This document shows positions 13,609-58,860 of a stretch of 64,000 nucleotides of DNA, piece by piece (the stretch's first letter is position 1; the number at the start of each line of letters is the position of its first letter). The notes beneath the pieces are model-generated. The model was not told the origin of the DNA. It did not search any database and saw only the letters and a list, made by a program, of their open reading frames with translations. This stretch comes from an uncultured Candidatus Rokubacteria bacterium (GTDB lineage: Bacteria > Methylomirabilota > Methylomirabilia > Rokubacteriales > CSP1-6). The stretch covers positions 224,001-288,000 of the forward strand of contig CAVYTA010000006.1 of NCBI GenBank assembly GCA_963771355.1, read 5' to 3'. Made by a program: the position numbers and the translations under genes.

Positions 13609-13609
<1 letters not shown>

Positions 13610-14571
13610 TGAGCGATACCCTCGCGTTCCTGCTCCAGTACGGCTACGTGATTCTCTACGCCTGCGTGCTGGCCGAGCAGGTCGGGCTTCCGGTCCCCGC
13701 GGTGCCGGTCCTGCTCGGGATGGGCGCGCTCGCCGGCGCCGGAGAGATGAGCCTGCCGCTCGCGCTCGGCGTGGTGCTGGCAGCGTCCTTGCCGCCGGAC
13801 CTCGTCTGGTACGAGCTCGGGCGGCGCCGTGGTCCGCGAGTGCTCGCTCGCATCTGCGCGATCTCGCTCGAGCCGGACTGGTGCGTCCGGCGGACCGAGA
13901 GCATGTTCATCCGGTTCGGCCGGAAGCTCCTGCTGGTCGCGAAGTTCCTGCCCGGGCTGAGCGCGGTGGCCTCGCCGCTGGCCGGGTCGGCCGGCGTGGC
14001 GCGGTGGCAGTTCGTCCTGCTCGACGTCACCGGCGCGCTGCTATGGGCCGGAACCTGGATGGGGATCGGCTATGCTTTCAGCGAGGCCCTGGACGTGGTG
14101 GCGGGTTGGGTCGCCCGGCTCGGCGGCTATGCGCTGCTGCTCGCGGGGGCCGCCTTGGCTGCCTACGTCGTGTTGAAGTATGCCAAGCGGCAGCGCATCT
14201 TCCGAGAGCTGCGGATGGCGCGCATCACCCCCGACGAGCTCAGGCGCCGGATCGACGCCGGCGACGGCGGCCTGGCCATCATCGACACCCGATCGGCGCT
14301 GGACGTGAGGGCGGTGCCCTTTCTGATCCCCGGCGCGATACGGATCGACGCCGACGAGGTCGAACGGCGCCACGCCGAGCTGCCGAAGGACCGAGAAATC
14401 GTCTTGTACTGCACCTGACCCAATGAAGCCACGAGCGCCCGGGTGGCGCTACGGCTCAAGCGACTCGGCTTCATGCGGGTCCGGCCCCTTCTGGGTGGCA
14501 TCGCGCTGTGGATGGACCAGAAATTCCCCGTGGAGGACATCCCGGAGCTTTTACTCGGTCCGCGCCCATGA
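13609..14571 (+). CDS. DedA (VTT) + rhodanese-domain membrane protein; predicted selenoprotein (TGA=Sec at 14416-14418, U270 of 320 aa)
   Basis: DedA motifs (EQVGLPVP, AKFLPG), then rhodanese DREIVLYCT-TGA-PNEATSARVALRLKRLGFMRVRPLLGGIALW up to a stop at 14569-14571; family motif recalled as YCxCPNE; hairpin follows the TGA. Confidence 0.85.
14424..14458 (+). promoter_or_regulatory. Candidate bacterial SECIS element (DedA-rhodanese)
   Basis: Upper stem AGCGCC/GGCGCT (14434-14450) with loop CGGGT at +22 to +26 from the UGA; lower stem TGA(A)GCC/GGCTCA. Confidence 0.7.
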
Positions 14572-14699
14572 CTCGTCGGTCGCCCGACGCCATGGGACCT
14601 TTTGCGGCCATGTTTCCGTGCACTTGCCGCCGGGTCGTGCTGGCTCGGTCGAGCTGGAAGCTAGTGAAGCGGCCGAGCCATCAAAAGGGCGTGGCTCAT

Positions 14700-16007
14700 A
14701 TGTTCCGTCTTCTGGGTAGTGTGGCGCTGATCGGGATGTTCTCGGGCCTGGTGGCCTGCGATCGGTCGCCTCAGGTCAACGCCGCCCCCAAGCCGCCCGC
14801 GGTCACGGTGGTGGCGGTCGCGCAACGCTCGGTCCCCGTGTACGGCCAGTACGTGGGTCAGACGGAAGCGGTGAAGACGGTCGAGGTGCGGGCGCGGGTC
14901 GAGGGCTTCATCGAGCGGCAGGTAGCGCCCGACGGGGCCAACGTCAAGGCGGGCGATCTCCTCTTCGTCATCGATGCGCGCCCCTTGCAGGCCGCGCTCC
15001 GCCAGGCGGAGGCCAATGTCGCCCGCGACAGCGCCGCGCTTCATCAGGCGGAAGCAGCCCTGACTCAGCGCGAGGCCGATGTGCGCCAGGCGCAGGCCAA
15101 TGTCGAGCGCGACGTCGCGCAGGCCGAGAATGCCCGCACGCAGGAAGGGCGCTATCGCGCCCTCCTCGAGAAAGAGCTGATCGCCCGCGAGCAGTACGAC
15201 CAGATCCGCACCAACATGACCGCGCTGGAGGCTACCGCGCAGGCCGACCGCGCCGCCCTCGAGAACGCGCGGGCCGCGCTCGCCGCCTCCCGGGCCGCCA
15301 TCGAGAACGCGCGGGCCTCGGTCCGCGCCAACGAGGCCGCGGCCGACAGCGCCCGGCTCCAGCTCGACTACACCTCCATCAGATCGCCGCTGGACGGGCG
15401 CATGGGGCGGGCCGAGGTCCGGGTGGGGGCGCTGGTCGGTAAGGGCGACGCCACGCTCCTGGCCACGGTGTCCACGCTCGATCCGATGTACGTCAGCTTC
15501 AGCGTGAGCGAGCGCGAGGCGCTGTCCGTGTGGGGGCGTCGCCGGGCGGAGATGCCGGCGCAGCCGAGCGTCTCCGGCATCACCCTGACGCTCCCGGACG
15601 ATACCCGGTACGCGCACGACGGGCGGCTCGACTTCGTCGACCGCGCGGTGGACCCGCGGACGGGCACCCTCGCTCTGCGCGCCGCCTTCCCGAACCCGGA
15701 GCGCAAGCTCCAGCCGGGCCAGTACGTACGGATCCAGGTCCTCCTCTCCGAGCGCCCCGACGCACTCGTCGTGCCTCAGGCCGCGATCCAGGAGAGCCAG
15801 GGTTCGGCGTCGCTGTTCGTGGTCGCGCCGGATCAGACAGTGCAGACACGTGCGGTGCGGATGGGACCGCGCCTGGGACCGCTGTGGGTCGTCGAGGAAG
15901 GCGTGAAGCCCGGCGAGCACGTCGTGGTCAAGGGCCTCCAGCAGATCCGGACCGGGATCCGCGTGGAGCCGACCCTGGAGCCCCTTCCGGCCGCCACCGG
16001 GGGCTAG
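14700..16007 (+). CDS. RND efflux periplasmic adaptor (membrane fusion) lipoprotein
   Basis: Lipobox LVAC, VEVRARVEG, coiled-coil hairpin, IRSPLDG, VDPRTGT. Confidence 0.92.
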   Translation: MFRLLGSVALIGMFSGLVACDRSPQVNAAPKPPAVTVVAVAQRSVPVYGQYVGQTEAVKTVEVRARVEGFIERQVAPDGANVKAGDLLFVIDARPLQAALRQAEANVARDSAALHQAEAALTQREADVRQAQANVERDVAQAENARTQEGRYRALLEKELIAREQYDQIRTNMTALEATAQADRAALENARAALAASRAAIENARASVRANEAAADSARLQLDYTSIRSPLDGRMGRAEVRVGALVGKGDATLLATVSTLDPMYVSFSVSEREALSVWGRRRAEMPAQPSVSGITLTLPDDTRYAHDGRLDFVDRAVDPRTGTLALRAAFPNPERKLQPGQYVRIQVLLSERPDALVVPQAAIQESQGSASLFVVAPDQTVQTRAVRMGPRLGPLWVVEEGVKPGEHVVVKGLQQIRTGIRVEPTLEPLPAATGG

Positions 16008-16013
16008 CCGCCG

Positions 16014-19000
16014 ATGTTCGTCAACTTCTTCATCGACCGCCCGATCTTTGCCTCGGTGCTCGCCATCGTCATCGTGGTGGCCGGCGCGGTGGCGATTCCG
16101 TTCCTGCCCATCGCGCAGTTTCCCGAGATCACGCCGCCGCAGGTGGTGGTGACCGCCACCTATCCGGGGGCGAGCGCCGAGGTCGTGGAGCAGACGGTGG
16201 CCACGCCCATCGAGCAGCAGGTCAACGGCGTCGAGGACATGATCTACATGTCCTCCCGCAGCGGCAGCGATGGCACGATGACGCTCACGGTGACGTTCAA
16301 GGTCGGTGCCGACCTCGACATCGCCGCCGTGAACGTGCAGAACCGCGTCTCCATCGCCCAGGCGAAGCTGCCCGCGGATGTGACCCGGCAGGGGATCACC
16401 ATCACCAAGCAAAGTCCGGATCTCGTCGAGATCGTCGCCTTGGTCTCCCCCGACGGGAGCCGCGACGAGCTCTACCTGGCGAACTACGCCACGCTCCAGG
16501 TCGTGGACGTGCTGGCGCGGGTGCCCGGGGTGGGGCAGGTGACCGTCTTCAACGGGCGGGACTATGGCATGCGGCTCTGGCTGAACCCCGACCGGCTCGC
16601 CGGCCTGGGGCTCACCGCCGGGGACGTGGCCGACGCGGTCCGGGAGCAGAACCTCCAGGCCGCCGCCGGTCAGATCGGCCAGCCGCCGTCACTCCCCGGG
16701 CAGCAGTTCCAGTACACGGTCACCACGCGTGGGCGCCTGTCGACGCCGGCCGAATTCGAGGACATCATCCTCCGCACGCGGTCCGACGGCTCGCTGCTCC
16801 GCGTCCGTGACGTCGCCCGGGTCGAGCTGGGCGCCCAGAGCTATGGGTCCTTCGGCCGAGTGGGCGGGAAGCCGGCCGCGCTCATCGGCATCTTCCAGCT
16901 GCCCGGCGCCAACGCCCTCGAGGTGTCGAAAGGGGTCCAGGCGGCGGTGGCGCGGCTCGCCCCGAGCTTTCCGGGTGGGGTCACCCATGAGCGCCCGTAC
17001 AACACGACGGAGTTCGTCCGGGTCTCGATCGAGGAGGTCGTGCTGACCCTCCTCATCGCGATCGGCCTCGTCGTCCTCACCGTCTACGTCTTCCTGCAGG
17101 ACTGGCGGGCCACCCTCATCCCGACCCTGACCATCCCGGTGTCGCTGGTGGGGACCTTCGCCGTCATCAGCGTGTTCGGGTTCTCGATCAATACGCTGAC
17201 GCTCTTCGGCCTCGTCCTGGCCATCGGGATCGTGGTGGACGACGCCATCGTGGTGGTGGAGAACACCCAGCGGCACCTCGACGAGGAGGGCTTGGATCCG
17301 CGCGAGGCGGCCCGTCGAGCGACCGCGGAAGTGGTGGGCCCGGTCATCGCCACCGCGCTCGTGTTGATGGCGGTGTTCATCCCGATCGCCTTCCTGCCCG
17401 GCATCACCGGCCAGCTCTACCGGCAGTTCGCGCTGACCATCGCGGTGTCGGTGGCGCTGTCCGCGCTGAATGCGCTCACGCTGACCCCGGCGCTGTGCGC
17501 GCTCCTCCTCCGTCCCGCCGGCGCGGCCCGGAAGCGCTGGCTCGGCCGGGTCTGGGACGCGGGGTTTCTCCGGCTCACCAACGGCTACGATCGGACCGTC
17601 CGGCGCATCGTCCGGCGGGCCGGGCTCGCGGTGGTGGTGCTGCTGCTCCTGGGCGGCGCCGCCTACGCGTTGCTGCGCGTGGTGCCCACGGGCTTCGCGC
17701 CCACCGAGGACCAGGGCTATCTGCTCGTCAACGCCCAGCTCCCCGACGCCGCCTCCGTGGAGCGCACCGACGCCGTCGTTCGCCAGATCGAGCAGATCCT
17801 GCTCGAGACGCCCGGTGTCGAGACGGTGGTGGCCATCGGCGGGCGCAGCTTCATCACGGGCGTCAATGGCCCGAACGTGGCCTCCCTCTTCCCCCGGCTC
17901 ACGGAGTGGTCCCATCGGAAGGCGCCCGAGCTCCAGGCCGGAGCCATCCTGGCCCGCCTGCGCGCGCGCCTCGGCAGCATCCAGGAGGCCTCCATCGTGG
18001 TCTTTCCGCCGCCCCCCATCCGGGGTATCAGCTCCGGCGGCGGGTTCCAGTTCGAGCTGCAAAGCGTGGGCGGCGGCTCGCTCCAGGAGCTCGACGCCAC
18101 CGCCCGGAAGATCATGGACGCAGCCCGCCAGCGTCCGGAGCTGGCGGCGACCTTCACGGGGTTCCGGCCGGGCGTGCCGCAGCTCGACGCGCAGGTGGAC
18201 CGCGCCAAGGCCAAGGCGCTCGGGGTGCCGCTGTCCGACGTCTTCTCGAGCCTGCAGATCTTCCTGGGCTCGCTCTACGTCAACGACTTCAACGCCTTCG
18301 GTCGTGTGTATCGTGTCCAGCTCCAGGCCGAGCCGAGCTTCCGCACCTCCCCCAGCGACGTGGCGCGACTCTATGTCCGGAGCCAGCCCTCCGCCAGCGG
18401 CCAGCCCGCCCAGATGGTGCCGCTGAGCACGCTCGTCTCCGTGAAGCCCATCACCGGGCCCGACACGATCTCCCACTACAATCTCTATCGGACGGCGGAG
18501 ATCGCGGGTGACACGGCGCCCGGCGCCAGCTCCGGTCAGGCCATCGCGGCCATGCAGGACGTGGCGCGCACCGTCATGCCACCCGGCATGTCATATGAGT
18601 GGACGGGCCTCGCCTTCCAGGAGATCGAGGCGGGCAGCCGCGCGGGGTTCGTCTTCGGCCTGTCCGCGCTCTTCGTCTTCCTCGTCCTGGCCGCCCAGTA
18701 CGAGAGCTGGCTCGTCCCTCTGGCGGTGCTCCTGGCGGTGCCACTCGGTGTGCTCGGCGCGCTGGGGGCCCTCTGGATGAGCGGCCTGGCCAACGACGTG
18801 TATGCCCAGATCGGCCTCGCGCTCCTCATCGGGCTGGCGAGCAAGAACGCCATCCTCATCGTGGAGTTCGCCAAGGAGCGCCGGGAGCACGGGACCGAGA
18901 TCCAGGAAGCGGCGCGGGAAGCCGCCCGGCTGCGCTTCCGACCCATCCTGATGACGTCCTTCGCGTTCATTCTGGGCTCGCTTCCGCTGGTCTTCGCGTC

Positions 19001-19190
19001 GGGAGCGGGCGCCGCCAGCCGGAACTCGATGGGCACCACGGTGGTGGGCGGGATGCTCGCGGTGACGGTGCTCGGCGTGCTGCTCGTCCCGGCCTTCTAC
19101 GTCGCGGTGGAGAAGCTCGCGGAGTGGCGGAAACGCCCCGAACCGATCCCCGCTCCGCCGGCCGATCGCGCCATCGAGAGGTCGCGTTAG
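16014..19190 (+). CDS. RND efflux permease, HAE1 (AcrB/MexF-like)
   Basis: FFIDRPIFA, GIVVDDAIVVVEN, KNAILIVEFA, RFRPILMTS; 1058 aa. Confidence 0.96.
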   Translation: MFVNFFIDRPIFASVLAIVIVVAGAVAIPFLPIAQFPEITPPQVVVTATYPGASAEVVEQTVATPIEQQVNGVEDMIYMSSRSGSDGTMTLTVTFKVGADLDIAAVNVQNRVSIAQAKLPADVTRQGITITKQSPDLVEIVALVSPDGSRDELYLANYATLQVVDVLARVPGVGQVTVFNGRDYGMRLWLNPDRLAGLGLTAGDVADAVREQNLQAAAGQIGQPPSLPGQQFQYTVTTRGRLSTPAEFEDIILRTRSDGSLLRVRDVARVELGAQSYGSFGRVGGKPAALIGIFQLPGANALEVSKGVQAAVARLAPSFPGGVTHERPYNTTEFVRVSIEEVVLTLLIAIGLVVLTVYVFLQDWRATLIPTLTIPVSLVGTFAVISVFGFSINTLTLFGLVLAIGIVVDDAIVVVENTQRHLDEEGLDPREAARRATAEVVGPVIATALVLMAVFIPIAFLPGITGQLYRQFALTIAVSVALSALNALTLTPALCALLLRPAGAARKRWLGRVWDAGFLRLTNGYDRTVRRIVRRAGLAVVVLLLLGGAAYALLRVVPTGFAPTEDQGYLLVNAQLPDAASVERTDAVVRQIEQILLETPGVETVVAIGGRSFITGVNGPNVASLFPRLTEWSHRKAPELQAGAILARLRARLGSIQEASIVVFPPPPIRGISSGGGFQFELQSVGGGSLQELDATARKIMDAARQRPELAATFTGFRPGVPQLDAQVDRAKAKALGVPLSDVFSSLQIFLGSLYVNDFNAFGRVYRVQLQAEPSFRTSPSDVARLYVRSQPSASGQPAQMVPLSTLVSVKPITGPDTISHYNLYRTAEIAGDTAPGASSGQAIAAMQDVARTVMPPGMSYEWTGLAFQEIEAGSRAGFVFGLSALFVFLVLAAQYESWLVPLAVLLAVPLGVLGALGALWMSGLANDVYAQIGLALLIGLASKNAILIVEFAKERREHGTEIQEAAREAARLRFRPILMTSFAFILGSLPLVFASGAGAASRNSMGTTVVGGMLAVTVLGVLLVPAFYVAVEKLAEWRKRPEPIPAPPADRAIERSR

Positions 19191-19297
19191 GGCTCGACCC
19201 GAAGCCCCGCATCCGTTTGACCTCCTCCGCGCAGTCTGGCAGGATCGACGCGCGACCTTCCCGACCCCGGACCGGTGCCGTTCCAGGAGGAGGGGAC

Positions 19298-21421
19298 ATG
19301 ATGCGCGGACATTCGATGATGGCTCTCGTGGCGCTCATCCTCGCGGGCCTGTCCGGTGGCGCCTTCGCGCAGGGCGGCGGGGCGGCCAAAGGCTCCGCCG
19401 AGCACATCCGGGCCGCGACCGGCAAGGTCGACGGCGCCGCCATCGCCGCCAATGCGCGAATGACGCGGGACTGGCCTACCCATGGCCTGGACTACGCCGA
19501 GACGCGCTTCAGCCGGCTCAGCCAGATCAACGCGGACAACGTCAAAGTCCTCGGCCTTGCCTGGGCGTACGACCTCGAGTCCACGCGCGGGGTTGAGGCG
19601 ACGCCGCTGGTGGTGGACGGTGTCATGTACGTCAGCGCCTCGTGGAGCGTCGTGCACGCCGTCGACGTGCGTAACGGCAAACGCCTGTGGGTCTACGATC
19701 CCGATGTCCCACGGGAAACGGGCTACAAGGGGTGCTGCGACGTGGTCAACCGCGGCGTCGCCCTCTACAAGGGCAAGGTCTTCGTCGCCACCTACGACGG
19801 TCGCCTGGTGGCCCTGGACGCCGCCACCGGCAACGTAGTGTGGACGAAGGACACCATCATCGACCGCTCGCGCTCCTACACTATCACCGGCGCCCCGCGC
19901 GTCTACAGGGGCAAGGTGATCATCGGCAACGGTGGCGCCGAGTACGGGGTCCGCGGGTACATCACTGCCTACGACACCGAGACCGGCGCCCAGCGCTGGC
20001 GCTGGTTCACGGTGCCGGGCGATCCCTCCAAGCCCTTCGAGGATGCCTCGATGGCCCGCGCCGCCAAGACGTGGGATCCGAGCGGCAAGTACTGGGAGGC
20101 CGGCGGCGGGGGAACCGCGTGGGACACGATGACCTTCGATCCCGACCTCAACCTCATGTACGTGGGCACCGGCAACGGTTCGCCGTGGGCGCGGAGCAAG
20201 CGGAGCCCGGCGGGCGGGGACAATCTCTACCTGGCTTCCATCGTCGCCCTCAACCCCGACACCGGAAAATACGTCTGGCACTACCAGGAGACGCCGGGGG
20301 ACAACTGGGACTTCACCTCGACGCAGCCGATGATCCTGGCCGACCTCAAGATCGACGGCGCCGCCCGCAAGGTGATCCTGCACGCGCCGAAGAACGGCTT
20401 CTTCTTCGTCATCGACCGCACCAGCGGCAAGCTCATCTCGGCGAAGAACTTCGTCGACGTGAACTGGGCCACCGGCTATGACAAGGGCGGGCGCCCGATC
20501 GAGACGCCCGAAGCCCGGGTAGTGGACCGGCCGCGCGAGATCATCCCGAGCCCCTACGGCGCGCGTAACTGGCACCCGATGTCGTTCAACCCGCAGACCG
20601 GCCTCGTCTATATGCCGGTGCAAGGCGTGCCGGTCAACCTGATGGACAACAAGAACTGGAAGCTGGGCGGCAACACGCCCGGTGAGCCCCACGGCGGGCT
20701 CGGCTGGAACCTGGCCATGTACGCCAATGCGGAGCCGCCCAAGAGCAAGCCCTTCGGCCGCCTCGTCGCCTGGGATCCGGTGCAACAGAAGGAAGCGTGG
20801 CGCCAGGAACACGTGTCCCCGTGGAACGGCGGCACGCTCACCACCGCCGGCAACCTCGTGTTCCAGGGCACCGCCGACGGGCGTTTCATGGCCTACAACG
20901 CCACCACCGGCGAGAAGCGGTGGGAAGCCCCGACGGGGACCGGCGTGGTGGCGGGGCCGGTCACGTATCTCGTGGACGGAACGCAGTACGTATCGGTGGC
21001 GGTGGGCTGGGGTGGAGTCTACGGCGTCATGCATCGCGCCACCAACCGGCAGGGACCGGGCACGGTCTACACCTTCGCTCTCGGCCGGAACGTCAAGGCG
21101 CCTGACTTCGTCGAGTACCAGCAGGGCGCGCTGGTCCAGGGCGTCAAGTACGATCCCGCCCATGTGCAGGAAGGCACCCTCCTCTACGTCAGCAACTGTG
21201 TGTTCTGCCATGGCGTCCCCGGGGTGGACCGCGGCGGCAACGTGAAGAACCTGGGCTACGCGTCAAGCGAGGTGATCGGCAACCTCGAGAAATTCGTGTA
21301 CCGGGGCCCGACCATGGCGGTGGGCATGCCCGACTTCACCGGCAAGCTCACGCCGGACCAGCTCGAGAAGATCAAGGCGTTCATCCAGGGTACGGCGGAC
21401 GCGATCCGGCCGAAGAACTAG
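19298..21421 (+). CDS. Type II quinohemoprotein alcohol dehydrogenase (PQQ + heme c)
   Basis: Signal peptide, GCCDVVNRG vicinal Cys pair, GNGGAEYGVRG, WDFTSTQ, C-terminal CVFCH heme motif. Confidence 0.93.
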   Translation: MMRGHSMMALVALILAGLSGGAFAQGGGAAKGSAEHIRAATGKVDGAAIAANARMTRDWPTHGLDYAETRFSRLSQINADNVKVLGLAWAYDLESTRGVEATPLVVDGVMYVSASWSVVHAVDVRNGKRLWVYDPDVPRETGYKGCCDVVNRGVALYKGKVFVATYDGRLVALDAATGNVVWTKDTIIDRSRSYTITGAPRVYRGKVIIGNGGAEYGVRGYITAYDTETGAQRWRWFTVPGDPSKPFEDASMARAAKTWDPSGKYWEAGGGGTAWDTMTFDPDLNLMYVGTGNGSPWARSKRSPAGGDNLYLASIVALNPDTGKYVWHYQETPGDNWDFTSTQPMILADLKIDGAARKVILHAPKNGFFFVIDRTSGKLISAKNFVDVNWATGYDKGGRPIETPEARVVDRPREIIPSPYGARNWHPMSFNPQTGLVYMPVQGVPVNLMDNKNWKLGGNTPGEPHGGLGWNLAMYANAEPPKSKPFGRLVAWDPVQQKEAWRQEHVSPWNGGTLTTAGNLVFQGTADGRFMAYNATTGEKRWEAPTGTGVVAGPVTYLVDGTQYVSVAVGWGGVYGVMHRATNRQGPGTVYTFALGRNVKAPDFVEYQQGALVQGVKYDPAHVQEGTLLYVSNCVFCHGVPGVDRGGNVKNLGYASSEVIGNLEKFVYRGPTMAVGMPDFTGKLTPDQLEKIKAFIQGTADAIRPKN

Positions 21422-21444
21422 CCGGGTCGAACAGGAGGCGTCCC

Positions 21445-22545
21445 ATGAGCACTCGTCGGGATTTCCTTCAGACCACCACCGGCGCCCTCGCCGGGCTCGC
21501 CTTCGTCGGGTGCGACCTGCTGCGCGCCGCGCCCGCGCGGGCGCAGGCCAGGCGCCGCGAGGTCGTCGTCAACGGCACGCGCGTCAAGACGGTGGATGTG
21601 CACGCGCATTGCGCGGTGCCCGAGGCGCTCGCGCTCATGAACCAGAAGCTCGCCGGCCCTGGCCTCCGGACCGACCTCGACATGGCGACCGAGGTCTCGC
21701 TGCGGCTGCGGACCATGGACGAGCAGGGGATCGACATCGAGGCGCTCAGCATCAACCCGAACTGGTACAAGGCGGATCGCGACCTGGCCAAGCAGATCAT
21801 CAGCATCCAGAACGAGAAGCTGGCGGCGGCGTGCGCCGCCAACCCGGACCGCTTCGTCGCCTTCGCCACGGTGGCGCTGCAGCATCCGGAGCTCGCCGCC
21901 GAGCAGCTCGAGGAAGGGGTCAAGAAGTACGGGCTTCGCGGGGCCGCCATCGGGGGGAATGTCAACGGGATGGAGATCAGCGACCCGAAGTTCCACCCGT
22001 TCTGGGCTAAGGCCGAGCAGCTCGGCGTGGTGGTATTCATCCATCCGCAGGGCGACGGCGCCCCCGCCCAGCTCGATCAGCGCTTCAAGGGCAACGGCTA
22101 TCTCGGCAACGTGATCGGCAATCCGCTCGAGACCACCATCGCGCTCTCGCATCTGATCTTCGAGGGCACGCTCGACCGGTTCCCGGGCCTCAAGATCTGC
22201 GCCGCCCATGCGGGGGGCTTCCTGCCGTCGTACTCGGGCCGGTCCGACTTCGGGTGTCCGACCCGGCCCGATCTCTGCCCGGGCGGGACGCACGGACCCA
22301 TCAAGAAGCGGCCGTCGGAATACCTCAAGCAGCTCTACTTCGACACCATGGTCTTCAACACGGAAGGCGTGCGTCACCTCGCCGCGGAGGTGGGCGTAGA
22401 CCGCCTGGTGGTCGGCACCGACTATCCCTATCCCTGGACGAAGACCGCGGTGGACCTGATCCTCCAGACGCCGGGGCTGAGCGACGCCGACAAGGCGGCC
22501 ATCCTGGGCGGCACCGCCGCCCGGCTGCTGGGGATCAAGAGCTAG
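21445..22545 (+). CDS. Tat-exported Amidohydrolase_2 family protein
   Basis: TRRDFLQ...ARA signal; VDVHAH, FIHP, GTDYPYPW; paralog of 2249-3286. Confidence 0.88.
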   Translation: MSTRRDFLQTTTGALAGLAFVGCDLLRAAPARAQARRREVVVNGTRVKTVDVHAHCAVPEALALMNQKLAGPGLRTDLDMATEVSLRLRTMDEQGIDIEALSINPNWYKADRDLAKQIISIQNEKLAAACAANPDRFVAFATVALQHPELAAEQLEEGVKKYGLRGAAIGGNVNGMEISDPKFHPFWAKAEQLGVVVFIHPQGDGAPAQLDQRFKGNGYLGNVIGNPLETTIALSHLIFEGTLDRFPGLKICAAHAGGFLPSYSGRSDFGCPTRPDLCPGGTHGPIKKRPSEYLKQLYFDTMVFNTEGVRHLAAEVGVDRLVVGTDYPYPWTKTAVDLILQTPGLSDADKAAILGGTAARLLGIKS

Positions 22546-22548
22546 CGG

Positions 22549-22983
22549 CTAGAGCGTCTTCACAACCTCGGCCGGCCATGCCCGGGCGTCGACGCGGGCG
22601 TGCCACTCCTTGATCTTGCCGTCCCGGTCGATCACCACGCCCACGCGCTGGGCGCCCTTCTGCGGGTCCGTGTTGGCGCCGTAGGCGGTGCCGATGTTGC
22701 GGTCGGTGTCGCAGATGAGCGGGAAGTTGAAGTGGTACTTCTCGGCGAACGCCTTGTTCTCGGCAGGGGTGTCGAACGACACCCCGAGGATCACGGCGCC
22801 CTTCTTGTCGTAGTCGGCCTTGAGGTCGCGGAACCCGCAACCCTCCGCCGTTCAGCCGGGGGTGTCGGCCTTGGGGAAGAACCACAGCACGATCGCCTTG
22901 CCCTTGAAGTCCGACAGCTTCACGGGGTTGCCGTTGTGGTCGCGGCCGGTGAAGTCGGGGGCCTTGTCGCCTGCCTTCAGCAT
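22549..22983 (-). CDS. bcp: BCP/PrxQ peroxiredoxin; predicted selenoprotein (TGA=Sec at 22852-22854, U44 of 144 aa)
   Basis: GGAGG RBS; MLKAGDKAPDF...FFPKADTPG-TGA-TAEGCGFRD...ILGVSFD...; the TGA is at the peroxidatic Cys of the PxxxTxxC motif; hairpin follows. Confidence 0.92.
22822..22845 (-). promoter_or_regulatory. Candidate bacterial SECIS element (peroxiredoxin)
   Basis: GAGGGTTGCGGGTTCCGCGACCTC from +7 of the UGA; stem GTTGCG/CGCGAC plus GAG/CTC, apex GGTTC. Confidence 0.75.
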
Positions 22984-22999
22984 ATGTCCTCCGCTGGTG

Positions 23000-23821
23000 T
23001 CACTGGTTCTGGGTTTCGAGCAGGGCCGCGAGCGCTCGGTAGGCGCGACGGGCGCGCTCGGCGGCGGGAAGATCGGCGGTGGCCCGGGACGGCGCCTCCA
23101 CCGCGAGCGGCAAGTCCGGGGGCAGCGCGGCCACGAGATCGCGCAGGGGCAGAACGCCCTCGCCCGGAAGTAGCCGCCCCGTTCGCGCCTCGCGGATGAG
23201 CGCGGGCGAGTCGGTGGGGCCGGGCATGTCCGCGGACGCGTCGCAGATCTGCGCATAGGGAAACAGCGACGGGTCCACACCGGCGATATGCGCCGGCAGC
23301 CCTCCGGATCGGCTGAAGTGGAGCGCGTCCACCACGACCGAGGCGTTCGCGCGGTTCGCGCGGCCCACCATCTGGACGGCGTGGGCGAGCGTGGGGACTC
23401 CGGTGTAGACGGCGAACTCCAGCCCGACCCGAAGCCCGTACCGGGCCGCCCGGTCGCAGAGATCACCGAAGCGCTCGAGGGTGCGGGCCTCGTCCGGCTC
23501 GGCGCTCATGACGAGGACATGCCGCGCGCCCAGGCGCGCCGAGACTTCGAGAAAGCCCTCCGGGATACCCACCGGCCGGTCGGGCTCGAAGCGCAGAAAT
23601 TCCGTGTCGAGCACGGTGATCCCGGTGTCCTTGAGGCGCGCGAGCGTGTCCCGCAGCAGGGGCCCCTCGCTCAGGATGTCATAGGGAGGGACGCCCACGC
23701 TCGGCGGAGCGGTGAGCCGGATTCCGACCGCGTGGAAACCCGCCGCCGCCGCCACCGACACCAGCTCGGGCGGTGTCGTGTCCAGCACGGTCAGGTGAGC
23801 CAGCGAGAGCTGACGAGGCAT
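23000..23821 (-). CDS. Sugar phosphate isomerase/epimerase (xylose isomerase-like TIM barrel)
   Basis: LSLAHLT, GLEF, VVDALHFSRSGG, QICDA, RLLPGEGVLPL. Confidence 0.85.
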   Translation of the reverse strand: MPRQLSLAHLTVLDTTPPELVSVAAAAGFHAVGIRLTAPPSVGVPPYDILSEGPLLRDTLARLKDTGITVLDTEFLRFEPDRPVGIPEGFLEVSARLGARHVLVMSAEPDEARTLERFGDLCDRAARYGLRVGLEFAVYTGVPTLAHAVQMVGRANRANASVVVDALHFSRSGGLPAHIAGVDPSLFPYAQICDASADMPGPTDSPALIREARTGRLLPGEGVLPLRDLVAALPPDLPLAVEAPSRATADLPAAERARRAYRALAALLETQNQ

Positions 23822-23837
23822 GGGGGAGACGAGGGGG

Positions 23838-37531: not shown

Positions 37532-40500
37532 TCACGGCCGCCGATATCGCCAGAGGTCGCTGATGCCCCCCGAGGAGGTCCCCGGGACGCCGTAACTGGA
37601 GCGCGAGCTCAACCCCACGCAGTAGACGGAATCGGGGTCACACGCGAAGGTCCACCAGGCGAGGTTCGGAGCCCCCGGCATGGCCAGCCAGGCCCAGGTG
37701 CCCCCGTCATCATCGTTCTGAATCCAGGCGCCGGTGGCGAGCATGAGCCACGTCTGACCCGGCAGCCGCGTGACGAGGCGGGCGCGCGTATCGTCCGTGG
37801 CAAACACCTGGTCGTATTGCGGCGTCCCGGGCACCCAGGATTGGTCCCAGACGGGCGGCGCTTCCGAGTCCAAGTTGAAGCGCCAGATGCGGTTCCGGGG
37901 ATTGCTCGTGGTGGTCGAGCTCGGCGTGACCACGAGAATGGCCTCACGCCGCTCCTTCGCGTACATCGCGGTGATGAGGTTATAGGCCCAGTTCCAGTTC
38001 AGTGTCGACGGCCAGGCCCGGACGAACCGCTTCACGATGACGGCGCCGCTGGCGTCGAAGCGGTACTCGTAGATCCCGCGCGCGGCTCCGTTGCCCGAAG
38101 TGCTGACGAAGAGCCATACGCTATCGCGCACGTCGTCGAAGATGATCCCGCCGGCCGAGCCCCAGACCACTTCGGACACGTCCTTATTGGTCCCCGCGAG
38201 GATGGTCCACTCCCCTTCGGGCTTTCCAGCCGTCGGGAAGGTGTACGCCTGGAGTCCATTGCCGTTGATCACGAGATAGCGGCCCCGGATGGAGTCCCAG
38301 GCGTGGTTCATGTACATGTGCTGAACCCACGGCTTGCCGGTGGGTGATAGCCCCCCCGTCATCACCGCGCCGCCTCTGATACCGCGCCAGATCGAGTTGG
38401 GCGTCCCGTCCGGGTTGTAGGCGGGCGGGCATTCGGCGACGAAGGGGTAGGTCCGCGCGGCGTTCACATAGTCGATGGTCTGGAGATCATTGCCCGGGTG
38501 CCCGGCGTGGCCGCCGCCCATCACCAGGAGGTCGCCATTGGCGATCAGGACCCCGGAGTAGGACCGGAAGATCCCCGCCCCGTTTGTTTGGATCGGGCGC
38601 GGGCAGTTCGTGTAGGCGGCGCCCGGCTGGCCCTCGGTGAGGTTTTGGTCTCCGCCGAGGAGCGGCTGATAGATGTTCTGCGTGGGGAAGACGAGCTTCT
38701 GCCAGGTCCCCGGCGCTTGCTCCCCGGGGGGCGGGGGAGGCGCCGGGGTAACGGTGAGGGTGAGCCGACGGCTGACGCCGTCGGCGAGCAAGTCATAGTT
38801 GGTCGTGGTCGTCGGCGAGACCGTGAGTGCGCCGTCCACGGAGACCGTGGCGCCATTCAGCGTGACCGTCGTCGCGTTGGACGTTTGCCAGCTCAAGGTG
38901 GCTGATTGCCCCACCGCGATTGTCGTGGGCACGGCCGTGAAACTGTCGATGCTGGCAGCCGGCGGGGGGGAGGCGGCTGTGTCACGGTGAGGATGAGCCG
39001 AAGGCTGACGCCGTCGGCGAGCAAGTCATAGTTGGTCGTGGTCGCCGGCGCGACCGTGAGCGTGCCGTCCGCGGGGACGGTGGCCCCATTCAGCGTGACC
39101 GTCGTCGCGTTGGACGTTTCCCAGGTCAAGGTGGCCGATTGCCCCACCGTGATCGTCGGGGGTACGGCCGTGAAACGGTCGATGGTGACTGTCGGCGGCG
39201 GCGGCGGGGGAGGCGGCTGAGTCACGGTGAGGGTGAGCCGACGGCTGACGCCGTCGGCGAGCAAGTCATAGCTGGTCGTGGTCGCCGGCGCGACGGTGAG
39301 CGTGCCGTCCGCAGGCACCATGGCGCCATTCAGCGTGACTGTCGTCGCGTTGGACGTTTCCCAGGTCAAGGTGGCCGATTGCCCCACCGAGATCGTCGTG
39401 GGCACGACCGTGAAACTGTCGATGGTGACGGTCGGCGGCGGGGGCGGCGCGGTAACGGTGAGGGTGAGGCGGCGGCTCACGCCATCGGCGAGCAAGTCAT
39501 AGTCGGTGGTGATCGTCGGCGCGACGATGAGCGCCCCGTCCGCAGGGACGGTGACGCCATTCAGCGTGACCGCGGTCGCATTGGACGTCTCCCAGCTCAA
39601 GGTGGCCGATTGCCCGGCCGTGATCGTCGTGGGTATGGCCGTGAAGCTGTCGATGGTGACGGTCGGCGGCGGGGGCGGCTGGGTAACGGTGAGAGTGATG
39701 CGACCGCTTACGCTGTCGGCGAGCAAGTCATAGTCGGTGGTGGTCGTCGGCGCGACGATGAGCGCCCCGTCCGCAGGGACGGGGACGCCATTCAGCGTGA
39801 CCGCGGCCGCGTTGGACGTCTCCCAGGTCAAGGTGGCCGACTCCCCCGCCGTGATCGTCGTGGGCGTGGCCGTGAAACTGTCGATGGTGACGGTCGGCGG
39901 CGGGGGCGGCGGCTGGGTAACGGTGAGGGTGATGCGACCGCTGACGCCGTCGGCGAGCAATTCATAGTCGGTGGTGGCCGTCGGCGAGACGGTGAGTGTC
40001 CCGTCCGCGGGGACGGGGACGCCATTCAGCGTGACCGCGGCCGCGTTGGACGTCTGCCAGGTCAAGGTGGCCGATTCCCCCGCCGTGATCGTCGTGGGTA
40101 TGGCCGTGAAACTGTCGATGGTGACGGTCGGCGGCGGGGGCGGCGGGGGCTGGGTAACGGTGACGGTGACGCGACCGCTCACGCTGTCGGCGAGCAAGTC
40201 ATAGTCGGTGGTGGTCGTCGGCGCGACGGTGAGCGTGCCGTCTGCAGGGACCGGGACGCCGTTCAGCGTGACCGCGGCCGCGTTGGACGTTTCCCAGGTC
40301 AAGGTGGCCGATTCCCCCAGCGTGATCGTCGTGGGCGTGGCCGTGAAACGGTCGATACTGACGGTCCGCGGCGGGGATGAAGTGACCTGCAGGAATTCCT
40401 GTGGCGAGTACCCGTCCACGCCCGTGTCGTAGTTGATCTGCCACCAATGGAACCCCCCGACCAGCGCGCCGGTACCCCCGACGATCGTTCCCGTCGCGCC

Positions 40501-48548: not shown

Positions 48549-48552
48549 GCCG

Positions 48553-50172: not shown

Positions 50173-50216
50173 CGGTCGCGGGGCGTAGTGTACGATACCC
50201 GGAGGAGGAGACAGCC

Positions 50217-50735
50217 ATGGCCAGGATGGAGCCGCTGGGGATCCACGAGGTCGATGACGAGATCCGCCACTTCTGCGAGGACGCCGAGCGCCAGACCGGT
50301 ACCTCCGCGAGCACCCGGACCTACGCGCGGAATCCCGCCGTGTTCAAGGCGCTCACCGCCTTTCGCGGCGCCCTGGTGCGCGAGGGCACGCTGGATCCCG
50401 TGCTCCGCGAGCTGGTGCGGATCAAGATCGCCGGACTGAACGCCTGCCGCTACTGACTCACCCTGCGCTATGCCGGGGCCCGGCATGCGGGGGCGACCGA
50501 AGCGAAGATCGCCGCGATCAACGACGAGACCTCCGACCTCCTGACCCCGCGCGAGCGGGCGGCCGTCCGCTTCGCCGAGAAGCTCGCGGTGGACCACCAG
50601 AAAGTGGACGACGCGCTCTGGGCGGAGATGCGCCAGCAGTTCACGGAAGCCGAGATCATCGAGCTGGTGGCCCACACCACGCTCTTCATCGGCTTCGGGC
50701 GCTTCAACGAGATCGTGGGGCTGGACCCGGCCTGA
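50217..50735 (+). CDS. AhpD/CMD-family peroxidase-like protein; predicted selenoprotein (TGA=Sec at 50454-50456, U80 of 172 aa)
   Basis: GGAGGAGG RBS; LRELVRIKIAGLNACRY-TGA-LTLRYAGAR...LTPRERAAVRFAEKLA...FTEAEIIELV...GFGRFN; CxxC becomes CxxU; hairpin follows. Confidence 0.9.
50461..50492 (+). promoter_or_regulatory. Candidate bacterial SECIS element (AhpD-like)
   Basis: Upper stem ATGCCG(G)/(C)CGGCAT with G-rich apex at about +20 to +24; lower stem CCCTGC/GCGGGG with a GCT bulge. Confidence 0.72.
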
Positions 50736-50737
50736 CC

Positions 50738-51496: not shown

Positions 51497-51529
51497 GGTG
51501 TTTGTATGATAGTCCAGGAGACCTCGCCC

Positions 51530-54823: not shown

Positions 54824-54904
54824 CGGCTGTCGTGATGCTACGGCGGGCGGCGACCGCTAGGCAAGGGGAGGATGTAGGATAGGGCCCCGGGAGGGCCGAT
54901 CCAG

Positions 54905-55798
54905 ATGCTGCCGACGCACGGGCGTTACGACTACTCGAACATCACGACACGCCCGGACTATACCTGGCCGGGCGGGCGCCGCCTGGCCGTCTACCTGGCG
55001 CTCAACATCGAAGCCTTCGGTTTCGGCGTCGGCAAGGGTGCCGCCATCGCCCCGCCGGACCAGGCGCAGAGCCACAGCATCTATAGCTGGCGCGACTACG
55101 GCAATCGCGTGGGCATCTGGCGCCTGTTCGAGCTGCTCGACGAGCTCGGGATGCCGGCCGAGGCCCAGATGAACACCGCGATCTACGAGATGGCGCCGGA
55201 TGTGCCGTCGCGGCTGCGCGCCCGGGGCGACGAGATCCTCGGCCACGGCGTGACCAACTCCGACGAGCAGGGCCAGCTCACCGAGGATCGGGAGCGCGCG
55301 CTGATCGAGGACGTCACCGCCACCATCGCGCGGCACGAAGGGGGGCCGCCGATCGGCTGGATGAGCCCGTGGCTGTCGAACAGCGCCGTCACCATGGATC
55401 TCCTCCAAGAGGCGGGCTACCGGTACGTGATGGACTGGACCATGGACGACCAGCCCATCTGGCTCCGCACCCGCAAGGGCCGGATCCTCGCCATACCCTA
55501 TCCGATCGAGGTGAACGACACGCGGGGCATCGTCTGGTATCGCTACACCGCCGATGAGTTCGCCGACATGATCGTGGACCAGTTCGACGAGATGCTGGCG
55601 CAGTCCGCGCGCCAGCCGCTGGTGTGCCCCATCTCGCTGCATCCCTTCGTCATCGGCCGGCCCTACCGGATCCGCCGGCTGCGGCGAGCCCTCCAGCACA
55701 TCCTCGCGCACGCCGATCGGGTCTGGCTGACACGCCCCCGCGAGATCTGCGCGCACATCGAATCCTTGCCGCCCGGGATCGTGCCGGGCAGCGCCTGA
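54905..55798 (+). CDS. Polysaccharide deacetylase/PuuE-like hydrolase
   Basis: WPGGRRLAV, WRDYGNRVGIWR, GWMSP, SLHPF. Confidence 0.88.
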   Translation: MLPTHGRYDYSNITTRPDYTWPGGRRLAVYLALNIEAFGFGVGKGAAIAPPDQAQSHSIYSWRDYGNRVGIWRLFELLDELGMPAEAQMNTAIYEMAPDVPSRLRARGDEILGHGVTNSDEQGQLTEDRERALIEDVTATIARHEGGPPIGWMSPWLSNSAVTMDLLQEAGYRYVMDWTMDDQPIWLRTRKGRILAIPYPIEVNDTRGIVWYRYTADEFADMIVDQFDEMLAQSARQPLVCPISLHPFVIGRPYRIRRLRRALQHILAHADRVWLTRPREICAHIESLPPGIVPGSA

Positions 55799-55820
55799 CC
55801 ATCCCCACGAGGAGACATCC

Positions 55821-56693
55821 ATGAAGATCGGCGTCGTGCTCCCGCAGACCGAGATCGGCAACGACCCCGCCGCCATCAAGGCCTACGCCGAGGCGGTCGA
55901 GGGTATGGGCTTCACCCATATCCTGGTCTTCGACCACGTGCTGGGCGCCAATCCCGAGCGCCCCGGGGGCTGGAAGGGGCCCTACACCTACCGTCACGGC
56001 TTTCACGAGCCCTTCGTGCTCTTCGGGTTCCTCGCCGCGGCCACGCGCCGGGTGGAGCTGGTGACCGGCATCATCATCCTGCCGCAGCGCCAGACCGCGC
56101 TGGTCGCCAAGCAGGCGGCGGCGGTGGACGTGCTCTCCGGCGGGCGGCTGCGGCTCGGCGTGGGGGTCGGCTGGAACCCGGTGGAGTTCGAGGCGCTCGG
56201 CGAGGACTTCACCACCCGCGGCCGGCGCGTGGAGGAGCAGGTCGAGGTGATGCGCGCGCTCTGGACGCGGGAGCTGGTCACGTTCAAGGGGGCGCACCAC
56301 CAGATCTCGGACGCCGGCCTCAACCCGCTCCCGGTGCAGCGGCCCATCCCCATCTGGATGGGCGGGGAGAGCGAGCCGGTGCAGCAGCGCATGGCCCGCA
56401 TTGCCGATGGCTGGATGCCCCACTTCCGCCCCGGCGCGCCGGCCCAGGCGACAGTGGACCGGCTCCACGAGATGATCCGCGGAGCCGGGCGCGACCCGAG
56501 GGCCTTCGGGATCGAGGGTCGCATGGCGCTGCCCCAGATCCCGGCGGCGGACTGGGGCAAGGAGCTGGAGGCGTGGCGCGCCATGCGCGGGATCACGCAC
56601 CTGTGCGTCCACACGGCCGGCATGGGGCTGGCGACGCCGGACGATCACGTGAAGACGCTGCGCCGCTTCCGCGAGACGGTAGGGCTCGGCTGA
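55821..56693 (+). CDS. LLM-class (putative F420-dependent) oxidoreductase
   Basis: FDHV, EPFVLFGFLAA, PQRQTALVAKQAA, GVGVGWN. Confidence 0.9.
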   Translation: MKIGVVLPQTEIGNDPAAIKAYAEAVEGMGFTHILVFDHVLGANPERPGGWKGPYTYRHGFHEPFVLFGFLAAATRRVELVTGIIILPQRQTALVAKQAAAVDVLSGGRLRLGVGVGWNPVEFEALGEDFTTRGRRVEEQVEVMRALWTRELVTFKGAHHQISDAGLNPLPVQRPIPIWMGGESEPVQQRMARIADGWMPHFRPGAPAQATVDRLHEMIRGAGRDPRAFGIEGRMALPQIPAADWGKELEAWRAMRGITHLCVHTAGMGLATPDDHVKTLRRFRETVGLG

Positions 56694-57079
56694 TGCCCCG
56701 GAAGGAGATCGTCAGCGTCGAGATCGGGCGGCCGAATCCCAACCTGTCTCTGGCCACCAAGTTCGGCAATCTCGTCTTCGTGTCCGGGCAGACGGGGCGC
56801 CACCCGGTCACCGGCGAGGTGGGCAAGGATATCCGGGAGCAGACGCGCTTCACGCTCGAGCGTATCAAGGTGATCCTGGCCGCGGCCGGCACGTCGCTCG
56901 ACAACGTGCTGACCGCGATGACGCATCTGACCCGCCGCGAGGACGTGGCCGCCTACAACGAGGAGTACGCGAAGTATTTTCCCACCGGAAAGCCCGCGCG
57001 GACCACGGTGACCGTCGCGGCGCTGAACTTTCCGGAGCTCCTAGTGGAGATCACGGTCACCGCGTGCATTCCGGAGTGA
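56693..57079 (+). CDS. RidA/YjgF family protein
   Basis: VFVSGQ, NEEYAKYF..KPART, LVEI. Confidence 0.9.
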   Translation: MPRKEIVSVEIGRPNPNLSLATKFGNLVFVSGQTGRHPVTGEVGKDIREQTRFTLERIKVILAAAGTSLDNVLTAMTHLTRREDVAAYNEEYAKYFPTGKPARTTVTVAALNFPELLVEITVTACIPE

Positions 57080-58236
57080 GAGGGCCCAGCGCGTGGCGGG
57101 CGGTAGCGGCCGCCACCGCGCTGAATGCCCCCCTCGGCTCGATCTACGCGTTCAGCGTCTTTCTCAAGCCCCTGGAATCGCTGCTCGGCCTGAGCCGGGC
57201 AGATCTTGCCTTCGTCTTCGCGCTGGCGGCGGCGGCATTCGCCGCCGGGATGAACCTGGTGCCGCTCGGGTTCGGGCGCGTGTCGGCGCCGGTGCTGGCG
57301 CTGGCGTGTGCGGGGCTGAGCGCGCTCGGCATCGCGCTGGTCGCCACGGCGGGGGGCCTCCGCCAGCTCGCTCTGGGCTACGGCTTATGCTTCGGCGCCA
57401 GCGTGGGCGCCGCCTACATTCTCTTCCAGCAGATTGTGAACCTCGCGGCGACCTCGCGCCGCGGCCTGGTCAATGGCTACCTCGTCAGTCTGCTGCCCGC
57501 CGGGGCCATGATCGCCGCGCCCGTTTTCGGGTGGGCGATCCCGACCATCGGCGTGCGCGCTGCGCTCGGCTGGTTCGCGGGCGTTCTCGCGCTCCTGGGA
57601 CTCATCAGCGCGTGGCTGACCGCGCGATCCGGCGTCACCCTTGCGACGGCGTCCGCCGGCGTCCGCATGAGTGAGGACGAGCGGCGCCGGCCGGTGTTCT
57701 GGCGGCTCTGGCTCATCTTCTTCCTCGCGGCATCCGCGGGGCTGATGGTGCTGAGCCAGGCGGCCGGCATCATCACGGCCTATGGGGGCTCGGCGGCCCT
57801 CGCCGTGTACGGCACGACGCTCATCACCGCCACCGTCGCCGCCGCGCGGCTGGGCGGGGGCTGGATGGCGGACTGGCTCGCGATTCCCCGCGTGGCGGCG
57901 GGTGCTCATGCCGTCGCCCTCGCCGGAGGTGTCGCGCTGATCCTCTGGCCCGGCGCCGGGATGTCGGTGCTGGCGCTGGGTCTGGTGGGGCTCGGGTACG
58001 GCCTGGTCTCGGGGGTCACCGCCGCGGCCGTCGCCGCCTACTGGCGGCGCGCGCTCTACGGCCGCGTGGCGAGCCGCATCTACATCGCGTGGTCCGCCGC
58101 CGCAATCGTCCTGCCGATCATCGCCGCGCGGCTGTTCGACCTGACCCAGGGTTATGGCCCGGCGGTAATGATCGCCGCCGGCGGCAATGCCCTGGGCATC
58201 CTGGTCGCGCTCGGGCTGCCCCGGCAAGAACGCTAG
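57076..58236 (+). CDS. MFS transporter (OFA-like)
   Basis: GSIYAFSVFLKPL; about 12 hydrophobic helices. Confidence 0.82.
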   Translation: MRGPSAWRAVAAATALNAPLGSIYAFSVFLKPLESLLGLSRADLAFVFALAAAAFAAGMNLVPLGFGRVSAPVLALACAGLSALGIALVATAGGLRQLALGYGLCFGASVGAAYILFQQIVNLAATSRRGLVNGYLVSLLPAGAMIAAPVFGWAIPTIGVRAALGWFAGVLALLGLISAWLTARSGVTLATASAGVRMSEDERRRPVFWRLWLIFFLAASAGLMVLSQAAGIITAYGGSAALAVYGTTLITATVAAARLGGGWMADWLAIPRVAAGAHAVALAGGVALILWPGAGMSVLALGLVGLGYGLVSGVTAAAVAAYWRRALYGRVASRIYIAWSAAAIVLPIIAARLFDLTQGYGPAVMIAAGGNALGILVALGLPRQER

Positions 58237-58860
58237 CTACTCGGCGTCGCCCTCGGCCTTGACCTTGGTCACGAGCTGCTCGAGCGCCTCGTAGGGTTGC
58301 GCGCCCACGACGCCGCGGCGGCCGACCACGAAGGTCGGCACGCCCGTGATTCCGTACTCGCGGGAGAGCTTCCAGTCCGCGTCGACGGCGGCCTTGTAGG
58401 TCCGCTTCTCGAGCACTTCGCGGGCGGCGTCGATCGGCAGGCCCACCGACTGCGCGATCTCGAGGAGCACGGCGGGCTGGGAGATGTCCCGCGCCTCGAC
58501 GAAGTAGGCCCGGAACATCGCGTCGTGGAAGGCCTCGCCGCCGGGCTGGGTGTCCGCCCACTTACCCAGCTCCTGGGAGAGCCGGCTATTGTAGGTGTGG
58601 GTGCGCTCGCCATACGGCAGCCCTTCAGCGTCCATGCGCGCCTTCATCTGGGCATGCATGGCCTTGATATCCAGCCCGCGCCCGGCGAAGAGATCGGCCA
58701 GGGCCAACCCTTCCGCCGGCGTTTCCGGGTGCAGGGGAAAGTGCACCCACTCGACCTTCACCCCGTGCTCTTTCTTCAGCCTCTCAATACGCCCGGTACT
58801 GAGATAGCACCACGGTCAGACATAGTCGGAGAAGATCTGCATCGTCACGGGCTCGGGCAT
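58237..58860 (-). CDS. FrnE/DsbA-like thiol-disulfide oxidoreductase; predicted selenoprotein (TGA=Sec at 58816-58818, U15 of 207 aa)
   Basis: AGGAGG RBS; MPEPVTMQIFSDYV-TGA-PWCYLSTGRIERL...FPLHPETP...GITGVPTF; CPWC becomes UPWC; hairpin follows. Confidence 0.92.
58782..58804 (-). promoter_or_regulatory. Candidate bacterial SECIS element (DsbA-like)
   Basis: 9-bp stem TCTCAGTAC/GTATTGAGA (one G-U pair), loop CGGGC at +21 to +25 from the UGA. Confidence 0.75.

Follow-up and report, generated by a model that had tools for sequence, protein, structure and literature searches.

Probable selenocysteine decoding of in-frame UGA codons in four redox genes of a Candidatus Rokubacteria genome

Four genes interrupted by TGA

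Within a stretch of 64,000 nucleotides from an uncultured Candidatus Rokubacteria of the phylum Methylomirabilota, corresponding to C6:224001-288000 (contig CAVYTA010000006.1 of assembly GCA_963771355.1) and referred to here as the window, lie four genes whose reading frames are each interrupted by a TGA codon. The assembly comprises 5.53 Mb in 8 contigs, with 70% GC, a completeness of 99.8% and a contamination of 2.2%. A preliminary description of this DNA had held that each of the four genes has exactly one internal in-frame stop, always TGA, and that the frame thereafter continues as a family match to a natural C-terminus. Read over the four intervals given below with TGA as selenocysteine (Sec, U), the translations match that description exactly.

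The first gene, here g1 (13609..14571, + strand), would encode a protein of 320 amino acids in which a DedA/VTT membrane domain at the N-terminus is joined to a rhodanese domain at the C-terminus; translation places its TGA at 14416..14418, as residue U270 in the motif LYCTU (C268, U270). The second, g2 (22549..22983, - strand), is a peroxiredoxin gene of the BCP/PrxQ type with a product of 144 amino acids and U44 in the motif TPGUTAEGC (TGA at 22852..22854, - strand). The third, g3 (50217..50735, + strand), belongs to the AhpD-like or carboxymuconolactone decarboxylase (CMD) family, with 172 amino acids and the motif C77-R-Y-U80 (TGA at 50454..50456, + strand), and the fourth, g4 (58237..58860, - strand), is a cytoplasmic FrnE-like gene of the DsbA family, with 207 amino acids and the motif U15-P-W-C18 (TGA at 58816..58818, - strand). 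For all four genes, the position of the codon follows both from translation and from the alignment of orthologs. The terminal stop of g1 and that of g3 are likewise TGA.

In all four genes, Pfam domains cross the internal TGA with scores above the gathering score. These are VTT_dom and Rhodanese PF00581 (43.6 vs 22.2) in g1, AhpC-TSA PF00578 (132.4 bits vs 26) in g2, CMD PF02627 (69.4 vs 23, together with TIGR00778 at 33 vs 27.8) in g3, and DSBA PF01323 (123.9 bits vs 25.6) in g4, whose sequence is without a signal peptide.

The preliminary description had also anticipated that standard gene callers would truncate such genes, and this is what happens. Our own simple gene caller, based on codon usage, interrupted all four genes at the TGA or close to it. 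Under standard gene calling, g1 ends at 14418 as a protein of 269 amino acids, and 106 of its 120 best public homologs are exactly 269 amino acids long, that is, they end at the TGA; only one of the 120 covers the full length, and those that bear a name are called 'membrane protein DedA'. Taken at face value, these 269-residue DedA entries would favour the view that the genes simply end at the TGA, or restart after it, and yield truncated or split proteins. Such truncation would, however, split each of the catalytic motifs, breaking off the fold of g2 after 43 residues and that of g4 after 14, whereas the domains run across the TGA in four of four cases and the downstream parts are conserved in frame with no need of a start codon. 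We consider this explanation hardly credible.

The TGA codon in relatives

Conservation of the codon was assessed by six-frame searches of related genomes, in which the protein match runs through the codon concerned. For g2, searched against 201 genomes of the phylum, all 53 matches of at least 76% identity in other genomes contain exactly one TGA, and one additional fragment stops short of the Sec site. The conservation of this protein extends past the TGA over its full length, with 76-92% identity in about 50 genomes. For g4, TGA is present in all 18 matches that cover residue 15 (60 genomes of the family, 20 of them with a match), and for g3 in all 27 site-covering matches in other genomes. 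For g1, 28 of 30 matches covering residue 270 in 60 related genomes have TGA, the exceptions being one without any stop and one with two TAG codons. Further, loci were fetched for alignment, 12 per gene with the window's own included, and the aligned codon is TGA in 48 of 48 (12 of 12 for each gene). Two unpublished genomes (G057 and G028) contribute one row or sequence each, and no result rests on either. Every one of the four genes has an in-frame UGA that is flanked on either side by conserved coding sequence.

These observations bear directly on the possibility that the TGAs are nonsense mutations, marks of pseudogenes or assembly errors, with the downstream similarity a mere relic. The genome does hold one gene that would suit this account. 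In the N-terminus of a sensor kinase (L092:1-429, + strand, G000:C4), a DUF4118 domain crosses a TGA at 61480; a paralog has Ala at that codon, the frame beyond it looks degraded, and the gene is likely a pseudogene or an assembly error and not a Sec gene. In the four genes of the window, on the other hand, relics would not be expected to stay open and conserved over their full length as g2 does, and the 48 loci come from many independent assemblies. The TGA at the aligned codon in all 48 therefore excludes sequencing error and recent nonsense mutation, as the preliminary description had argued on the ground that chance would not strike such positions four times, and the probability left to decayed or misassembled genes is minimal.

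Cysteine counterparts and active sites

The preliminary description had placed every TGA at a redox cysteine, which holds exactly for three of the genes. In an alignment with the BCP structure 2ywn, U44 of g2 meets the peroxidatic Cys and C49 the resolving Cys, so that TPG-U-TAEG-C stands against TQV-C-TKEM-C in a protein with both the motif and the fold of BCP/PrxQ. U80 of g3 aligns to the second Cys of the CxxC motif in PA0269 (2o4d), with C-R-Y-U against C-A-Y-C, in keeping with the CMD/AhpD family, and U15 of g4 to the first Cys of CPWC in the FrnE structure 5cnw, where the fold is again that of DsbA proteins, as is the motif at the N-terminus of helix 1.

For g1, the statement needs to be amended. 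Here C268 is the canonical Cys of rhodaneses, and U270 stands two residues onward in the active-site loop; this later position is a Cys in homologs from other phyla. Among 10 further site-covering loci from other assemblies, the codon is TGA in five, Cys in four and Thr in one. TGA occurs in further Methylomirabilota or Rokubacteria records, one 'Candidatus Acidoferrum' and one Nitrospirota record; TGT or TGC occurs in Verrucomicrobia, two Lysobacter and one Terriglobales record; and ACG in one Terriglobia record. TGA as against TGT or TGC at this site makes the motif C-x-U or C-x-C, and the Cys homologs of g1 accordingly have C-x-C. Moreover, paralogs within the same genome align either a C or another TGA at the Sec site. 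Overall, homologs of each gene have Cys where the UGA stands.

Sec machinery and the genetic code

A search for the four genes of the Sec machinery, which the preliminary description had named among its checks, recovered all of them with scores above curated cut-offs. A tRNA-Sec scores 69 bits against a cut-off of 47 bits and is called SeC(tca) by ARAGORN; selA (555 bits) and selB (367 bits) adjoin it. On a separate contig lies selD (266 bits; L019:49-2475, + strand, G000:C4), with an open frame of 808 amino acids. Its product is a Cys form of SelD (GGCAAKVG) with an apparent fused N-terminal domain that resembles a pyridine-nucleotide-disulfide oxidoreductase or NADH dehydrogenase. The genome therefore contains tRNA-Sec together with SelA, SelB and SelD.

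Readthrough of UGA could, in principle, proceed without selenium, either under a reassigned code or through insertion of Trp, Cys or Gly by a suppressor or near-cognate tRNA. Nothing specific speaks for this beyond the fact that the frames would be open under any code that gives TGA a residue. Against it, TGA is the commonest stop in the genome and terminates 1111 of 1961 (57%) strong long open reading frames, g1 and g3 included. As TGA is still the main stop, the genetic code has not been reassigned. The presence of tRNA-Sec, selA, selB and selD argues in the same direction, and so does the restriction of the recoded sites to places where homologs have Cys and where a hairpin with a GG-containing loop follows. 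Selenium-free readthrough is, in our estimate, highly improbable.

Predicted SECIS hairpins

A stem-loop after each TGA, as had been described, is present in all four genes. That of g1 spans 14427..14456 (+ strand), with a core stem at 14434-14439 / 14445-14450 and the loop CGGGT. The hairpin of g2 spans 22815..22850 (- strand), with a core stem of 9 bp at 22823-22843 and an apical GGU/GGUUC loop. In g3 (50467..50488, + strand), a perfect stem of 8 bp carries the loop GGC, and in g4 (58779..58809, - strand), a core stem of 9 bp, made of AT-rich codons that are rare in this genome, carries the loop CGGGC. With a 3' stem-loop, G in the apical loop and a constrained distance from the codon, these are predicted selenocysteine insertion sequence (SECIS) elements. 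A scan of the window against Rfam returned zero families at the gathering score.

The trait that proved informative is the GG-loop hairpin and not its stability. The screen required 6 bp or more of perfect stem, closing a loop of 3-8 nt that contains GG and starts 14-34 nt from the U of the UGA. Such a hairpin follows 22 of the 40 Sec sites identified in the genome (see below) compared with 596 of 4943 Cys-codon controls (12.1%), and all four genes are among the positives: from g1 to g4, their stems measure 6, 8, 8 and 9 bp and their loops begin at +24, +19, +23 and +23. The minimum free energy of positions +3..+50 differs only modestly, being -17.9 at the 40 Sec sites vs -15.4 kcal/mol at 1500 in-frame Cys codons (P=5.5e-5).

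Conservation 3' of the TGAs in relatives, on which the preliminary description had staked its proposal, is clear: all four hairpins are invariant across 12 orthologs each. In g2, alignment columns 19-38 are unchanged in 12/12 orthologs. Within g4, synonymous diversity is at its lowest in the hairpin region (0.088 vs 0.289, P=0.001). In orthologs of g1, synonymous changes fall in the codons immediately before the hairpin and none within it, and the element AGCGCC-CGGGT-GGCGCT, placed at +24, is shared by 17 of 17 genes with TGA, whose protein identity goes down to 50%.

Among the five forms of g1 with Cys or Thr at this site, one has kept the hairpin. This Verrucomicrobia record (L076) has TGT at the codon of U270 and retains a hairpin with the CGGGT loop and a compensatory pair change in the stem, a pattern that would fit a recent switch from Sec to Cys.

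A genome with many Sec genes

The preliminary description had called for a genome-wide comparison of TGA codons with Cys homologs, and had inferred an unusually dense Sec-based thiol-redox network. In our own scan, every in-frame TGA with a coding signal on both sides was collected, followed by paralogs that align C or TGA, and the resulting 171+13 candidate windows, translated with U for TGA, were run against Pfam and NCBIfam. In 40 genes, the TGA is covered by a family model. This conservative figure is a lower bound, as the scan overlooks sites close to the ends of proteins, those whose codon signal is weak and any family that has no model. Most of the genes belong to thiol-redox families; in full, the 40 comprise AhpC-TSA/redoxin (12 genes), CMD/AhpD-like (6), UGSC (6), formate dehydrogenase alpha (3), rhodanese (3), DsbA-like (2) and OsmC (2), with one gene each for Thioredoxin_3, ThiF/MoeB, HMA (with a UxxU metal-binding motif), Rdx/SelW, an ArsC-related family and a CUAEP radical SAM family.

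The part of the claim that stands is a selenoprotein-rich genome with at least 40 such genes; a locally dense and interlinked network is not demonstrated by the data. Four of 40 randomly placed sites would fall within 44.4 kb of a 5.5 Mb genome with P=0.12, and other cluster sizes give uncorrected values of 0.04-0.62, so that clustering was rejected as a real feature; the four genes share one window because the genome holds at least 40 of their kind. Their neighbours are unrelated (a flavin monooxygenase and RND efflux genes; an amidohydrolase; a solute-binding protein and a lyase; a P450 and an MFS gene) and recur in only 0-4 of 11 orthologous loci, and a shared operon or conserved neighbourhood was likewise rejected. 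The four are independent genes and form no operon. At 13607-13611 of the window, the start of g1 overlaps by one base with the stop of the upstream gene for a flavoprotein resembling flavin monooxygenases (TGATG), which suggests translational coupling of the two; their pairing recurs in only one of 11 orthologous loci.

Several further sites deserve mention. A metal-binding protein of the DUF411 family, which has a TAT-type signal and the motif SPT-U-GCC (L090:256-708, + strand, G000:C2, TGA at 110813), is a probable selenoprotein; it has no match to a seleno-specific NCBIfam model, its Pfam match lies downstream of the U only, and the family presumably has CGCC where U-GCC stands here. A rhodanese with L-L-Y-U-A-C (L194:1-396, - strand, G000:C6, TGA at 847752) has the order of Sec and Cys swapped relative to the LYCAU of NF041203. 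Two near-identical genes for a Sec-containing formate dehydrogenase alpha subunit lie at contig ends (L094:256-708 and L169:256-708, at the end of G000:C4 and the start of C7), and could reflect a duplicate assembly of a single locus or variation between strains. In another candidate (L183:256-708, - strand, G000:C7, TGA at 706095), the TGA falls between two AhpD-like half-domains, with Cys in the adjacent repeat and no model that spans the site. Within the window itself, a TGA at 38322 (+ strand; MYMCU, in a 43-residue open reading frame) has some coding signal and zero family matches, and one at 61222 (- strand) separates two adjacent genes in a common frame; both were set aside. A search for Sec near the C-terminus and a relaxed scan, both screened for a Cys within 4 residues and a GG hairpin, yielded 40 candidates in the first case and 16 in the second, and no convincing one among them.

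In a listing of public sequencing runs, at least 0.79 of the sequence words of the stretch 13500-23100 are found in 14 DNA runs from four soil or rhizosphere studies, and two metatranscriptome runs contain 0.23-0.28 of them, counted over the stretch as a whole. The selenoprotein-rich bacteria described so far are mostly anaerobes. The present genome, nearly complete at 99.8% in 8 contigs, is of a kind that occurs in metagenomes from soil and rhizosphere, and it extends the record by at least 40 selenoprotein genes.

Probable selenocysteine decoding and its possible roles

Taken together, the complete machinery, the conserved TGA, the SECIS-like hairpins and the pairing of Sec with Cys in homologs lead us to conclude that all four UGAs are decoded as Sec, and that the four are genuine bacterial selenoprotein genes with SelB/SECIS recoding of UGA; we would put the probability of this at roughly 0.93. 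Codons, machinery, conservation and hairpins can be read directly from the DNA, and from them we infer the incorporation of Sec and the enzymatic roles, which are worded below as predictions.

A number of observations weigh against this conclusion and have been taken into account. In a genome of 70% GC, the stability of a hairpin is a weak discriminator. Of the 1500 control Cys codons, a fraction of 0.087 is at least as stable as g2 and 0.046 as g3, but 0.40 and 0.65 equal or better g1 and g4, which leaves the latter two individually ordinary (40% and 65% of controls). Covariation measured with RNAalifold over 12 orthologs each is essentially nil in the hairpins, as expected of invariant elements, and other tests were therefore sought. 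Of these, the reduction of synonymous change after the U, in a fixed window of 14 codons, is significant for g4 only, with P values of 0.14-0.24 for g1-g3. In addition, g1 reaches 92.3 bits against the curated cut-off of 115 bits for its best NCBIfam model, NF041203, and g3 stays under the curated cut-offs of NF053654, a YciW-related (seleno)protein model (79.7 vs 310), and of TIGR01926 (61.8 vs 81.8).

If the UGAs are decoded as Sec, a ribosome that reaches the codon would meet, just downstream, a hairpin whose G-rich apical loop lies about 20-25 nt from the UGA. This hairpin would be bound by SelB-GTP carrying Sec-tRNA(Sec), which SelA would have made from selenophosphate supplied by SelD; Sec would then be inserted, and translation would run on to the natural end of the protein. 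The product of g2 would be a BCP/PrxQ peroxiredoxin with a peroxidatic Sec and Cys49 as its resolving partner, that of g3 an AhpD-like oxidoreductase of the C-x-x-U type, that of g4 a cytoplasmic, FrnE-like oxidoreductase of the DsbA family with U-x-x-C, and that of g1 a DedA membrane protein with a rhodanese domain bearing a C-x-U active-site loop.

A more speculative idea, which we regard as unlikely, is that g1 may serve the trafficking of selenium or sulfur as a membrane module; three observations point towards it. For Ralstonia metallidurans, a link between DedA and the uptake of selenite is mentioned at second hand in PMC11422209. The DedA-rhodanese fusion occurs widely among soil phyla, where the same position has Sec or Cys, and the active site of the g1 type is almost always cut off in public databases. 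In a similarly doubtful elaboration, the DedA part may carry a selenium or sulfur species through the membrane, and the rhodanese loop may capture it as a selenenylsulfide or perselenide for hand-over, for instance, towards SelD.

The consequences for annotation are more immediate. In this lineage, dozens of redox enzymes have their active sites split or lost under standard gene calling, and with gene calls truncated in this way, metabolic and stress readings of Rokubacteria made from public protein sets miss a large selenium-dependent thiol-redox system. Correcting the annotation and flagging a very large selenoproteome are the main value of the present work.

Comparison with known systems

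In the type of Sec insertion exemplified by fdhF and fdnG of E. coli, SelA, SelB, SelC and SelD act together with a SECIS hairpin directly 3' of the UGA. The genes described here share with it the in-frame UGA, a hairpin within the coding sequence with an apical G, and all four machinery genes; they differ in that the hairpin sequences are gene-specific and SelD is a Cys form with an N-terminal fusion. The same scheme of UGA, SelA/B/C/D and 3' SECIS is given in a 2026 review (PMC13188914). The mechanism is thus ordinary SelB/SECIS recoding, and knowledge of how Sec is encoded is left unchanged by these genes.

Prx-like selenoproteins are reportedly listed in selenoproteome surveys. Like Prx-like/PrxU proteins (PF00578; NF040737 peroxi_PrxU), g2 has an AhpC/TSA fold in which Sec takes the peroxidatic position; unlike them, it represents the BCP/PrxQ subtype, its resolving Cys standing five positions further on, and it scores below the NCBIfam cut-offs both of the PrxU model (47.7 vs 270) and of the BCP equivalog NF006960 (108.5 vs 140). 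AhpD-like and CMD-like selenoproteins are said to have been first predicted in the Sargasso Sea selenoproteome, and g3 shares with this group (TIGR01926, PF02627) a CMD domain across the U and the C-x-x-U motif. With DsbA-like form 1 and with FrnE of Deinococcus radiodurans (5cnw), g4 has in common the DSBA domain and U-P-W-C set on C-P-W-C; at 207 amino acids it is shorter than FrnE (260 amino acids), the alignment stopping at FrnE residue 221, and no selenoprotein-specific NCBIfam model covers the whole protein.

The preliminary description had regarded the families as known, which is borne out by the part of the family table in PMC13188914 that is accessible. It contains rhodanese form 3 (NF041203, CxU), CMD-like and AhpD-like proteins (CxxU), DsbA-like form 1 (PF01323, UxxC) and a PF08534 'Redoxin family protein' with UxxC, and, in that same part, no row for PF00578 or Prx.

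The best NCBIfam match of g1 is NF041203 'rhodanese_LYCAU' (E=1.7e-26), with which it shares the L-Y-C-x-U loop in a rhodanese domain. While that family is stand-alone and about 126 amino acids long, g1 is a fusion of 320 amino acids with an N-terminal DedA/VTT domain; two stand-alone relatives occur in the same genome. In the library of papers that was searched, none joins 'DedA', 'rhodanese' and 'selenocysteine', and the DedA-rhodanese fusion is the least documented item among the four genes.

Finally, a Methylomirabilota metagenome-assembled genome with 63 predicted selenoprotein genes has been described (Deng et al. 2026, as cited in PMC13188914), and the ten genomes that head BSepDB range from 63 down to 46 selenoproteins (PMC13326102, Table 2). 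Since the families and the large selenoproteome of this lineage are already in print, the four genes add new members to known families but bring nothing that is new in kind. The genome studied here belongs to the same phylum as that with 63 genes and holds at least 40, mainly of thiol-redox families. Its count is lower than the published maxima and comes from a conservative scan of our own instead of the published predictors; on a more modest reading, a better predictor might place its selenoproteome among the published top ten, with at least 46 genes.

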